This document shows positions 15,619-62,200 of a stretch of 64,000 nucleotides of DNA, piece after piece; the stretch's first letter is position 1, and the number at the start of each line of letters is the position of its first letter. Under the pieces are notes generated by a model, which saw nothing but the letters and a program-made list of their open reading frames with translations, was not told the DNA's origin and did not search any database. The position numbers and the translations under genes are program-made. Source of the stretch: Escherichia coli. GTDB lineage: Bacteria; Pseudomonadota; Gammaproteobacteria; Enterobacterales; Enterobacteriaceae. The stretch is from NCBI RefSeq assembly GCF_050920415.1, contig NZ_CP169309.1; one strand, 5' to 3'.

Positions 15619-15870
<252 letters not shown>

Positions 15871-15910
15871 CTAACGCCAGACACCACGCGATGTTTAAAG
15901 TATAGTTTGA

Positions 15911-20452: not shown

Positions 20453-20544
20453 AACCCTCAAAATCCCCCCCATCTATAATTGCATTATGCCCCGTACTTT
20501 TGTACGGGGTTTGTACTCTGTATTCGTAACCAAGGGGTCAGCTC

Positions 20545-21075
20545 GTGACAACTATAGTAAGCGTACGCCGTAACGGCCATGTGGTCATCGCTGGTGATGG
20601 TCAGGCCACGTTGGGCAATACCGTAATGAAAGGTAACGTGAAAAAGGTCCGCCGTCTGTACAACGACAAAGTCATCGCGGGCTTTGCGGGCGGTACTGCG
20701 GATGCTTTTACGCTGTTCGAACTGTTTGAACGTAAACTGGAAATGCATCAGGGCCATCTGGTCAAAGCCGCCGTTGAGCTGGCAAAAGACTGGCGTACCG
20801 ATCGCATGTTACGCAAACTTGAAGCACTGCTGGCAGTCGCGGATGAAACTGCATCGCTTATCATCACCGGTAACGGTGACGTGGTGCAGCCAGAAAACGA
20901 TCTTATTGCTATCGGCTCCGGCGGCCCTTACGCCCAGGCTGCGGCGCGCGCGCTGTTAGAAAACACTGAATTGAGTGCTCGTGAAATTGCTGAAAAGGCG
21001 TTGGATATTGCAGGCGACATTTGCATCTATACCAACCATTTCCACACCATCGAAGAATTAAGCTACAAAGCGTAA
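20545..21075 (+). CDS. hslV: ATP-dependent protease subunit HslV
   Basis: 176-aa [38 protein letters not shown]... recognised as HslV. Confidence 0.97.
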
Positions 21076-35189: not shown

Positions 35190-35295
35190 CCATATGCGGC
35201 GCGAACGCCTTATACGGCCTACAAAAGTTTGCAAATTCAATAAATTGCAGAATTCATGTAGGCCTGATAAGCGAAGCGCATCAGGCATTTTTGCT
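35190..35295. repeat. REP elements between sbp and pfkA
   Basis: gcggcgcgaacgccttatacggcctac and gtaggcctgataagcgaagcgcatcaggc are typical REP units. Confidence 0.75.
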
Positions 35296-37388: not shown

Positions 37389-37469
37389 AAATACTCCCGC
37401 TATCAACTGACGGTAGTATAACGGAAGCAAATCATCTGCAATGCATTAAGCAGTAGGCAAATTGAGGAT

Positions 37470-37536
37470 AAAAAAAACCCCCACATCATGTGGGGGAAGA
37501 CAGGGATGGTGTCTATGGCAAGGAAAACAGGGTTTA
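37470..37536 (-). ncRNA. cpxQ: cpxP 3'-UTR with terminator; expected source of the CpxQ small RNA
   Basis: Immediately downstream of the cpxP stop on the minus strand is a GC hairpin (cccccacatcatgtggggg) followed by a U-run. CpxQ is known to be processed from the cpxP 3'-UTR in E. coli and Salmonella; the boundaries here are approximate. Confidence 0.45.
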
Positions 37537-38037
37537 CTACTGGGAACGTGAGTTGCTACTACTCAATAGCTTCAACGATGAACTTTTTTGCCATTGCGTC
37601 ACGTCGCGCAACTGCTCCATTCGTTGTTGATGTTTCTCGTTTAAAACCGCTTGCTGCTCCGGCGTTAACAGGCGATACATTTGGTTGCGGACTTTTGCCA
37701 TCTCAACCTGGCGAGCAATTTGCTCATTCGCCATTTTTTCTGCCTGTGCGCGCACAGCGTTTTCATCAAAATTTTCTGCGGTGACAAGGCGATGCATTGT
37801 CTCCAGTTCGCTAACATTAACAGGAGGCTGTTCGTGCCGGGCCTGTTGCATAAGATCTCGCATCTGCTGACGCTGATGTTCGGTTAAACTTATGCCGTCG
37901 AACATATGGCTCTGCGTACTGCGCTGCGTAAGTTCTTCACCCGGATGCCAGTTATCGCCTGAACCGACTTCAGCAGCGTGGCTTAATGAACTGACTGCCA
38001 GCGTTGAGGCCATGACGGCAGCGGTAACTATGCGCAT
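37537..38037 (-). CDS. cpxP: periplasmic envelope-stress adaptor CpxP
   Basis: Recognised start [39 protein letters not shown]... (166 aa); two LTxxQ motifs are present. Confidence 0.94.
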
Positions 38038-38116
38038 CATTTGCTCCCAAAATCTTTCTGTCGCGATTCAACGATAGAGAGTTTACGATTCAGGCTGCAA
38101 ACATGCGTCAGGGGGT

Positions 38117-38131
38117 GTAAAACAACGTAAA
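38117..38131. promoter_or_regulatory. CpxR box (GTAAA-N5-GTAAA) in the cpxP / cpxRA divergent promoter
   Basis: GTAAAacaacGTAAA matches the established CpxR recognition tandem exactly. Confidence 0.7.
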
Positions 38132-38186
38132 GTCATGGATTAGCGACGTCTGATGACGTAATTTCTGCCTCGGAGGTATTTAAACA

Positions 38187-38885
38187 ATGAATAAAATCCT
38201 GTTAGTTGATGATGACCGAGAGCTGACTTCCCTGTTAAAGGAGCTGCTCGAGATGGAAGGCTTCAACGTGATTGTTGCCCACGATGGGGAGCAGGCGCTT
38301 GATCTTCTGGACGACAGCATTGATTTACTTTTGCTTGATGTCATGATGCCGAAGAAAAATGGTATCGACACATTAAAAGCACTTCGCCAGACACACCAGA
38401 CGCCTGTCATTATGTTGACGGCGCGCGGCAGTGAACTTGATCGCGTTCTCGGCCTTGAGCTGGGCGCAGATGACTATCTCCCGAAACCGTTTAATGATCG
38501 TGAGCTGGTGGCACGTATTCGCGCGATCCTGCGCCGTTCGCACTGGAGCGAGCAACAGCAAAACAACGACAACGGTTCACCGACACTGGAAGTTGATGCC
38601 TTGGTGCTGAATCCAGGCCGTCAGGAAGCCAGCTTCGACGGGCAAACGCTGGAGTTAACCGGCACTGAGTTTACCCTGCTTTATTTGCTGGCACAGCATC
38701 TGGGTCAGGTGGTTTCCCGTGAGCATTTAAGCCAGGAAGTGCTGGGCAAACGCCTGACGCCTTTCGACCGCGCTATCGATATGCACATTTCCAACCTGCG
38801 TCGTAAACTGCCGGATCGTAAAGATGGTCACCCGTGGTTTAAAACCTTGCGTGGTCGCGGCTATCTGATGGTTTCTGCTTCATGA
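38187..38885 (+). CDS. cpxR: envelope-stress response regulator CpxR (OmpR family)
   Basis: 232-aa ORF MNKILLVDDDRELTSLLKELLEMEGFNVIVAHDGEQALDLL... recognised as CpxR. Confidence 0.97.
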   Translation: MNKILLVDDDRELTSLLKELLEMEGFNVIVAHDGEQALDLLDDSIDLLLLDVMMPKKNGIDTLKALRQTHQTPVIMLTARGSELDRVLGLELGADDYLPKPFNDRELVARIRAILRRSHWSEQQQNNDNGSPTLEVDALVLNPGRQEASFDGQTLELTGTEFTLLYLLAQHLGQVVSREHLSQEVLGKRLTPFDRAIDMHISNLRRKLPDRKDGHPWFKTLRGRGYLMVSAS

Positions 38886-40261: not shown

Positions 40262-40350
40262 CATTTGTAGGCCAGATAAGGCGTTACGCCGCATCCGGCG
40301 TTTGAGCAGAATGCCTGATGCGACGCTGATAGCGTCTTATCAGGCCTACT
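40262..40350. repeat. REP elements between cpxA and yiiM
   Basis: tgtaggccagataaggcgttacgccgcatccggcg and gcctgatgcgacgctgatagcgtcttatcaggcctac. Confidence 0.8.
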
Positions 40351-59282: not shown

Positions 59283-62200
59283 ATGCAGGTCAGCAGAAGG
59301 CAGTTCTTTAAGATCTGCGCTGGCGGTATGGCAGGCACCACGGCAGCGGCACTGGGTTTTGCACCCAGCGTAGCACTCGCGGAAACCCGGCAGTATAAAC
59401 TGCTGCGCACCCGCGAAACCCGTAATACCTGCACCTATTGTTCCGTAGGCTGTGGGCTGTTGATGTACAGCCTCGGTGACGGAGCAAAAAACGCCAAAGC
59501 ATCTATCTTCCATATCGAAGGTGACCCGGATCACCCGGTCAACCGCGGTGCACTTTGTCCGAAAGGCGCTGGCCTGGTGGATTTCATCCACTCCGAAAGC
59601 CGTCTGAAGTTTCCGGAATACCGTGCGCCAGGTTCTGATAAATGGCAGCAAATCAGTTGGGAAGAGGCGTTTGATCGCATTGCCAAACTGATGAAAGAAG
59701 ACCGCGATGCTAACTACATTGCGCAAAACGCCGAAGGCGTGACTGTTAACCGCTGGCTCTCCACCGGGATGCTGTGTGCTTCCGCGTCGAGTAACGAAAC
59801 CGGCTATTTAACGCAAAAATTCTCCCGCGCGCTGGGTATGCTCGCGGTCGACAACCAGGCGCGTGTCTGACACGGACCAACGGTAGCAAGTCTTGCTCCA
59901 ACATTTGGTCGCGGTGCGATGACCAACCACTGGGTCGACATCAAGAACGCCAACCTCGTCGTGGTGATGGGCGGTAACGCCGCTGAAGCTCACCCGGTCG
60001 GGTTCCGCTGGGCGATGGAAGCCAAAATTCACAACGGCGCGAAGCTGATTGTGATCGATCCTCGCTTTACGCGTACGGCGGCGGTGGCTGACTACTATGC
60101 CCCTATTCGTTCCGGTACTGACATTGCTTTCCTGTCAGGCGTATTGCTGTACCTGCTGAACAATGAAAAATTCAACCGCGAATACACCGAAGCCTATACC
60201 AACGCCAGCCTGATCGTGCGTGAGGATTACGGCTTTGAAGATGGCCTGTTCACCGGCTACGACGCGGAAAAACGCAAGTACGATAAATCCTCCTGGACTT
60301 ACGAACTGGACGAAAACGGCTTCGCCAAACGCGATACCACGCTGCAACATCCGCGCTGCGTGTGGAACTTGCTGAAACAGCACGTTTCCCGTTATACGCC
60401 AGATGTGGTTGAAAACATCTGTGGCACGCCGAAAGACGCGTTCCTGAAAGTCTGCGAATACATCGCCGAAACCAGTGCTCACGATAAAACTGCCTCGTTC
60501 CTTTACGCGCTCGGCTGGACGCAACACTCCGTTGGTGCGCAGAACATTCGTACGATGGCGATGATCCAGCTGCTGCTCGGCAATATGGGGATGGCAGGCG
60601 GCGGCGTTAACGCCCTGCGCGGTCACTCCAACATTCAGGGGCTGACGGACCTGGGGCTGCTGTCGCAGAGCCTGCCAGGTTACATGACGCTGCCAAGCGA
60701 GAAGCAGACCGATCTGCAAACCTACCTTGCCGCCAACACGCCGAAACCGCTGCTGGAAGGCCAGGTTAACTACTGGGGCAATTACCCGAAATTCTTCGTC
60801 TCCATGATGAAGGCCTTCTTTGGTGATAAAGCGACGGCAGAAAACAGCTGGGGCTTTGACTGGTTGCCGAAGTGGGATAAAGGCTACGACGTCCTGCAAT
60901 ACTTCGAGATGATGAAAGAGGGCAAGGTCAATGGCTATATCTGCCAGGGCTTTAACCCTGTTGCCTCATTCCCGAACAAAAACAAAGTGATCGGTTGTCT
61001 GTCGAAACTGAAGTTCCTCGTCACTATCGACCCGCTGAACACTGAAACCTCTAACTTCTGGCAGAACCACGGTGAGCTGAACGAAGTGGACTCGTCGAAG
61101 ATCCAGACCGAAGTGTTCCGTCTGCCATCGACCTGCTTCGCGGAAGAGAACGGTTCAATCGTTAACTCCGGTCGCTGGTTGCAGTGGCACTGGAAAGGTG
61201 CGGACGCCCCGGGGATTGCGCTGACTGATGGCGAGATCCTCTCCGGTATCTTCCTGCGCTTGCGCAAGATGTACGCCGAACAGGGTGGCGCGAACCCGGA
61301 CCAGGTGCTGAACATGACCTGGAACTACGCCATTCCGCATGAGCCGAAGTCGGAAGAAGTAGCGATGGAGAGCAACGGTAAGGCGCTGGCCGATATTACC
61401 GATCCGGCAACCGGTGCGGTTATCGTCAAGAAAGGCCAACAACTTAGCTCGTTCGCACAACTGCGCGATGACGGTACCACCTCCTGTGGCTGCTGGATTT
61501 TCGCCGGTAGCTGGACGCCAGAGGGCAACCAGATGGCACGCCGTGATAACGCCGATCCGTCTGGCCTCGGTAACACGCTGGGCTGGGCATGGGCATGGCC
61601 GCTTAACCGCCGCATTCTGTATAACCGCGCCTCCGCAGATCCGCAGGGTAACCCGTGGGATCCGAAGCGTCAGTTGCTGAAATGGGACGGCACTAAGTGG
61701 ACCGGCTGGGATATTCCGGACTACAGCGCAGCACCTCCGGGCAGTGGCGTCGGGCCGTTTATCATGCAGCAGGAAGGCATGGGGCGTCTGTTTGCCCTCG
61801 ATAAGATGGCGGAAGGTCCGTTCCCGGAACACTACGAGCCGTTTGAAACGCCGCTGGGAACTAACCCGCTGCATCCAAACGTTATCTCGAACCCGGCTGC
61901 ACGTATCTTTAAAGACGACGCCGAAGCATTGGGTAAAGCCGATAAGTTCCCGTATGTCGGAACCACCTATCGTCTGACCGAGCACTTCCACTACTGGACC
62001 AAACACGCGCTGTTGAACGCGATTTTGCAACCAGAGCAGTTTGTGGAAATCGGTGAGTCGCTGGCGAATAAACTTGGCATTGCCCAGGGCGATACCGTGA
62101 AAGTCTCCTCCAACCGTGGCTATATCAAAGCCAAAGCGGTGGTGACCAAACGTATTCGCACGCTGAAAGCGAATGGCAAAGATATCGATACCATCGGTAT

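Follow-up and report, generated by a model that had tools for sequence, protein, structure and literature searches.

The segment that follows cpxP in a 64,000-nucleotide stretch of an Escherichia coli genome (contig NZ_CP169309.1; the whole stretch is called the window below) is cpxQ, a known and curated gene, and nothing in the feature itself is new. With a probability of about 97% it gives rise to a 58-nt sRNA that would be released by RNase E from the CpxR-driven cpxP mRNA, bound by Hfq and used to repress envelope mRNAs. The evidence read directly from the DNA consists of the identity to K-12 b4716, the position, the terminator, the conservation, the linkage to cpxP, a CpxR box and the absence of internal promoter-like sites.

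Identity and Extent of CpxQ

The minus strand of 37470-37536 reads UAAACCCUGUUUUCCUUGCCAUAGACACCAUCCCUGUCUUCCCCCACAUGAUGUGGGGGUUUUUUUU, its first base lying directly after the cpxP stop codon (37539-37537, minus strand), and falls into the blocks UAAACCCUG UUUUCCUUGCCAUAGACACCAUCCCUGUCUU CCCCCACA-UGA-UGUGGGGG UUUUUUUU. In K-12 MG1655 (NC_000913.3) the ncRNA cpxQ (b4716, 58 nt) begins 9 nt past the cpxP stop codon. An earlier note on this DNA had claimed that the cpxP 3′-UTR likely encodes CpxQ and had proposed an alignment to the published sequence; this alignment is positive, with 57/58 positions identical between b4716 and 37527..37470 (minus strand), and together with the same cpxP offset, the conservation and the gene order it bears the claim out. 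All seed positions are the same, as are the bases around the RNase E cut, and the sole mismatch is the third base of the terminator loop (window 37486), which is A here and C in K-12. The published residues U7 and C11 fit a 5′ end at UUUUCCUUGCC (window 37527), which puts a U at position 7 and a C at position 11. The interval first proposed, 37470-37536, does hold CpxQ, but the mature sRNA is 37527..37470, and the first 9 nt of that interval (37536..37528) precede the annotated 5′ end.

Mature CpxQ, UUUUCCUUGCCAUAGACACCAUCCCUGUCUUCCCCCACAUGAUGUGGGGGUUUUUUUU, thus occupies 37470..37527, and it and all of its parts lie on the minus strand. A 9-nt spacer, UAAACCCUG (37528..37536, minus strand), separates the stop codon of cpxP from the 5′ end of CpxQ; it is placed by the K-12 offset and the alignment, and the RNase E cut that makes the 5′ end would be located at its 3′ edge. 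The base-pairing part, defined by conservation and fold, comprises nt 1-31 (37497..37527). In the predicted fold, nt 1-13 stay single-stranded as the 5′ seed, and nt 14-18 pair with nt 26-30 (AGACA/UGUCU; 37514..37498) in a small hairpin with the loop CCAUCCC. The terminator hairpin CCCCCACA-UGA-UGUGGGGG spans nt 32-50 (37478..37496) according to the terminator scan and RNAfold, and is followed by the U8 tail (nt 51-58; 37470..37477), which is the 3′ end of the transcript by sequence and terminator scan and is expected to serve as the Hfq-binding 3′ tail.

The 58-mer is found in 5423/5426 complete E. coli genomes, 4192 of which carry it at 99% identity or more to the window version, and 1223 genomes fall in the 95-99% band (over 58 nt, one or two mismatches, as in K-12). 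Most E. coli genomes share the UGA loop of the window, which is also the commonest loop in other Enterobacterales and the form in the phage core described below; K-12 has UGC. CpxQ of E. coli K-12 (b4716) and that of Salmonella share the locus, the strand relation to cpxP, the 9-nt offset and the length with the window copy, from which the K-12 RNA differs in the terminator loop (UGC instead of UGA). The reference studies for CpxQ in E. coli K-12 and Salmonella are reportedly those of Chao and Vogel (2016) and Grabowicz et al. (2016). Because every seed position is identical to K-12, the published findings on CpxQ processing, stability and targets should transfer directly to the window strain.

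The Terminator and the Conservation of the Region before It

The terminator scan places a hairpin of 8 pairs (6 of them G-C) with a 3-nt loop at 37496..37478, followed by a T8 tail. This agrees with the architecture described in the earlier note, in which the stop codon is followed by a short region and then by a minus-strand intrinsic terminator with a U-run. The hairpin letters quoted there belong to the right hairpin, which is a near-palindrome, but cccccacatcatgtggggg is its plus-strand reading; in RNA sense it is CCCCCACAUGAUGUGGGGG. RNAfold gives -17.4 kcal/mol (z = -2.35), and 5/200 shuffles fold equally well. A simple scan of 2 kb yields two terminator-like sites where 2.1 are expected. 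The hairpin alone is therefore not beyond chance, and the case for CpxQ rests beyond it, on the 57/58 match to K-12 and on conservation between genera.

That conservation was assessed with the pattern CTGTTTNCCTTGCCAN{5,12}TCCCTGTC, which, applied to one genome per species, returns at least 120 loci. The listed matches belong to Enterobacterales in 119/120 cases (Enterobacteriaceae, Erwiniaceae, Pectobacteriaceae and Yersiniaceae). The remaining one, a Bacteroidales MAG (L117), was treated as a chance match, with no terminator and with 85 nt of upstream sequence only. Among the matches listed, a CpxP homologue (47.6-98% identity) lies directly upstream and on the same strand in 108/108 testable loci, a locus being testable when at least 300 nt of upstream sequence are available.

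Identity to the window changes sharply along the region. It is 0.64 over the last 141 nt of cpxP, 0.77 for the stop codon and spacer, 0.997 over CpxQ nt 1-31 (in 111 aligned sequences), 0.82 for the terminator hairpin, 0.985 for the U tail and 0.34 for the DNA past the terminator. Because 22 of the first 32 nt are dictated by the search pattern itself, only the terminator, the flanks and those positions that the pattern leaves free count as independent evidence. The free positions, namely the block UAGACACCA and the N, likewise reach at least 90% conservation, and nt 1-32 are the same in 29 distinct sequences from other Enterobacterales, save for a 1-nt deletion in two. The regional pattern agrees with the published observation that no other part of cpxP is as conserved as the CpxQ region (PMC9438474).

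The terminator behaves differently from the pairing region, in that its structure is kept and not its sequence, with compensatory changes in the stem. Among the matches listed, a hairpin of at least 5 pairs stands right before the U run in 116/119 related loci, and these 116 display 33 stem/loop variants whose arms are always complementary, in one case via a G.U pair. Examples of variant arms are CCCCCACA/UGUGGGGG, CCCCCUCA/UGAGGGGG, CCCCGCC/GGCGGGG and GCCCUCC/GGAGGGC. RNAalifold on a MAFFT alignment recovers only 3 terminator pairs, because loops of unequal length put the arms out of register, and per-sequence folding was used instead.

These data bear on the simplest alternative, that the region is a mere cpxP 3′ UTR with its terminator and no RNA function of its own. 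A cpxP terminator is indeed present, and a terminator-like site alone does not rise above chance, yet this explanation is very unlikely: a terminator needs no conservation of the sequence before it, and here the 31 nt preceding the hairpin stand at 0.997 across four families, against 0.64 for the coding sequence and 0.82 for the hairpin. It is also contradicted by the phenotypes of published deletions and point mutants (PMC4817254; PMC10250213; PMC6755755).

The cpxP Locus and the Origin of the Transcript

The locus in the window is the E. coli cpx locus, with the order cpxA-cpxR / cpxP-fieF-pfkA, where cpxR and cpxA lie upstream of cpxP and are divergent from it, and fieF and pfkA lie downstream. 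The cpxP CDS, which encodes the parental mRNA of CpxQ, occupies 37537..38037 (minus strand) when the ORF list is read with the K-12 CDS limits; the mechanical ORF, 37537..38040 (minus strand; 167 codons), is one codon longer. RefSeq labels the matching region “cell-envelope stress modulator CpxP.”

GTAAA-N5-GTAAA is the consensus of CpxR sites. A perfect copy is located in the cpxR-cpxP intergenic region (38117..38131, plus strand), lying upstream of cpxP by 77-91 nt when counted from the first ATG of the ORF (38040) and by 80-94 nt when counted from the K-12 start (38037). The 64-kb window contains this one match (0.15 expected) and no other, and at least one match occurs in 14/100 shuffles. 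Judged by its sequence and position, this box probably links transcription of cpxP and CpxQ to the Cpx response. No sigma-70-like site is found on the minus strand from 37537 to 38200, a stretch that includes the end of cpxP; the nearest one is upstream of cpxP. The arrangement suggests a single transcription unit that would start at the cpxP promoter and end with the terminator at 37470.

Some 3′-UTR sRNAs, among them DapZ and MicL, do have internal promoters, and CpxQ might likewise be conceived as an independent gene with a promoter of its own within the cpxP 3′ end, and not as a processing product. This is extremely unlikely. The last 500 nt of cpxP contain no minus-strand sigma-70-like site, and the annotated 5′ end is a U, a poor initiating nucleotide that a plasmid promoter is noted to avoid as a start (PMC10250213). 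Moreover, CpxQ is lost in published RNase E-site mutants (PMC9438474).

Biogenesis by processing is described in published work. RNase E cleaves the cpxP mRNA near its stop codon, Hfq sharpens this cleavage and shields the resulting RNA, and mutation of the RNase E site abolishes CpxQ; the same review describes CpxQ as a 3′-UTR-derived sRNA and gives its target list (PMC9438474). E. coli CpxQ has a 5′ monophosphate, is very stable (half-life above 16 min) and lowers nhaB mRNA (PMC10250213). It resembles SdhX, SroC, and NarS, which are also mRNA 3′ ends released by RNase E, share the terminator of the parental transcript, depend on Hfq and are more conserved than the coding sequence; they differ from CpxQ in their parental genes, seeds and regulons, and show no sequence relationship with it (PMC9438474).

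RNase E processing, Hfq binding, stability and target repression may be expected in the window strain as well, to judge from its sequence. The CpxR-activated cpxP promoter would give one cpxP mRNA ending at the hairpin and U8 terminator (37496-37470), RNase E would cut this mRNA 9 nt past the stop codon to yield a 58-nt RNA with a 5′ monophosphate (37527..37470), and Hfq would bind and stabilise the released RNA. The invariant nt 1-31 would then pair with mRNAs encoding mainly inner-membrane and envelope proteins (nhaB, skp, cfa, agp, ydjN, and fimA), and pairing would lead to a block of translation initiation or to RNase E decay. Through this arrangement, one Cpx-induced transcript would provide both the periplasmic protein CpxP and the post-transcriptional repressor CpxQ.

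Target Pairing

Pairing residues have been published for two targets. U7 of CpxQ pairs with nhaB (PMC10250213), and cfa is repressed via pairing that involves C11, as C11G disrupts the interaction and a compensatory cfa mutation is described (PMC6755755). E. coli CpxQ also represses skp and lowers the level of CpxP (PMC4817254). At the published site in the nhaB coding sequence, a 15-bp duplex of -15.9 kcal/mol is predicted between CpxQ nt 4-18 and nhaB +299..+314.

Unbiased duplex scans do not rank known target sites over shuffled controls. In sliding RNAduplex scans with CpxQ nt 1-39, equally good scores are obtained by 33/100 shuffled queries against nhaB and by 122/200 against the cpxP 5′ region. 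Because shuffles do as well, the RNAduplex scan lends no support to the reported cpxP autoregulation site and is unfit for target discovery. With shorter seeds, the best match falls at the nhaB ribosome-binding region, -15..-4 (NC_000913.3, L126), where an 11-bp duplex of CpxQ nt 1-11 with the Shine-Dalgarno region is predicted as possible (-15.3 kcal/mol). The nhaB translation-initiation-region site is reported as not conserved in E. coli (PMC10250213).

A Phage Attachment Core inside CpxQ

The 3′ part of CpxQ coincides with the unoccupied attB core of WPhi-type P2-like phages. This core, the 45-nt CACCATCCCTGTCTTCCCCCACATGATGTGGGGGTTTTTTTTATC at 37467..37511 (minus strand), corresponds to CpxQ nt 17-58 plus AUC. 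In strain MZ1211, a 33.7-kb P2-like prophage with integrase, Cox, Ogr and P2-type structural genes is inserted between cpxP and fieF and is bounded by two copies of CACCATCCCTGTCTTCCCCCACATGATGTGGGGGTTTTTTTTATC, while a circular P2-like element of 32 kb has the identical 45 nt adjoining its integrase. Copies of the core lie at L002 6590-6634, L003 4001-4045 and L125 8566-8610. The same core is present in phage L-413C and is reported to be shared, without any difference, by WPhi (PMC3448106). For prophage Wphi1 in E. coli W, cpxP-fieF is the listed location (PMC3032704). The WPhi-type integration site is thus already known. In the literature searched, no paper was found that links the cpxP-fieF phage site to CpxQ. 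For the integration sites of P2-like coliphages in general, Karlsson et al. (2006) is said to be the work to cite.

The cpxP-fieF region is interrupted in 832/5426 complete E. coli genomes (about 15%), and in all five interrupted genomes among the matches listed the break lies 3 nt past the U tail. Integration leaves an intact CpxQ at attL and a 5′-truncated copy before fieF. The attB of K-12 is one base off the phage core (loop UGC vs. UGA). A different kind of insertion is seen in the clinical strain GN02461 (L004 1110-1290, NZ_CP095533.1), in which an IS200C is placed after the seventh U of the CpxQ tail, between cpxP and fieF, and the terminator tail becomes U7 followed by GUG.

Use as an attachment site might itself be held responsible for the conservation, in place of RNA function, since the core of WPhi-type P2-like phages coincides exactly with CpxQ nt 17-58 and the next 3 nt. 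The chance that this is right is vanishingly small: the core does not include nt 1-16, where conservation is highest, the hairpin within the core varies freely between genera, and hosts gain nothing by keeping attB. Phages typically pick conserved RNA genes, and a P2 site at cyaR is listed (PMC3032704). CyaR (RyeE) is, like CpxQ, an Hfq-binding sRNA whose gene serves as a P2-family integration site (PMC3032704); it is a different sRNA, used by an integrase of other specificity, and is independently transcribed.

Besides the seed in the small hairpin and loop, the phage copy of CpxQ nt 17-58 includes the terminator and the U tail. Lysogens, which account for about 15% of complete E. coli genomes, thus contain a second, 5′-truncated CpxQ-like module beside fieF, and free phage genomes contain it too. 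If transcribed, this module might act as a partial CpxQ mimic or as an Hfq competitor; such a role is speculative and very improbable.

Hrs1, Rfam and the Annotation of cpxQ

At the gathering threshold, an Rfam scan of the whole window gives no match to a CpxQ family, because Rfam is without one. A permissive local scan finds RF02628 (Hrs1) as the best match, at 37470-37542 on the plus strand, with 44.5 bits against a gathering score of 56.4 and hence below threshold. Other weak matches (NsiR1, RyhB, OmrA-B and others) were dismissed as chance similarities driven by the terminator. When the RF02628 consensus is reverse-complemented, it aligns with CpxQ block for block: CCUGUUUnCCUUGCCA, AUCCCUGUCU, the hairpin and the U run. 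The Hrs1 model matches six Erwiniaceae loci (L006, L021, L035, L039, L045 and L081) with 61-82 bits, always opposite the CpxQ core and cpxP.

Hrs1 (Zeng and Sundin, 2014) is like CpxQ in being Hfq-dependent and in lying between cpxP and fieF, on the strand of both; in Erwinia amylovora, hrs1 is a 74-nt Hfq-dependent RNA between these two genes and in the same orientation (PMC4070566). It is unlike CpxQ in being reported as 74 nt long and Erwinia-restricted, and in having an Rfam model on the opposite strand. By sequence, Hrs1 qualifies as the Erwiniaceae homologue of CpxQ, and the RF02628 model appears to be reverse-complemented, that is, built on the wrong strand, and narrow. No paper naming both Hrs1 and CpxQ was found in the literature searched.

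The RF02628 match at 37470-37542 (plus strand, 44.5 bits, E = 1.4e-7) could be taken to mean that the functional RNA lies on the plus strand, but this has practically no chance of being correct, given that the model opens with A7 and then a hairpin, the reverse complement of a terminator, that in Erwiniaceae it always falls on the strand opposite cpxP, that hrs1 is listed in the orientation of cpxP and fieF (PMC4070566), and that the window score of 44.5 is below the gathering score of 56.4.

In the other complete RefSeq E. coli genomes sampled, cpxQ is unannotated (“none” under every match), which fits the absence of a CpxQ family from Rfam, where Hrs1 is the one related model. Five further elements of the window match Rfam at gathering level. 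naRNA4 (CssrE; 40270-40346, plus strand) is located just past cpxA, its match consisting of two stem-loops, and ES036 (CssrF; 35224-35265, plus strand) follows pfkA. The SECIS_3 selenocysteine insertion element (59865-59923, plus strand), the ClpQY (hslVU) promoter element (20490-20547, plus strand) and the L31 ribosomal-protein leader (15838-15890, minus strand) are known families, unrelated to CpxQ.

Implications

A corrected RF02628 model would permit annotation of cpxQ across Enterobacterales. The WPhi core in CpxQ represents a further case of P2-family phages targeting the genes of Hfq-binding sRNAs. If the phage-borne module did act as a CpxQ mimic or Hfq competitor, it would link P2-type lysogeny or infection to the Cpx envelope-stress regulon.
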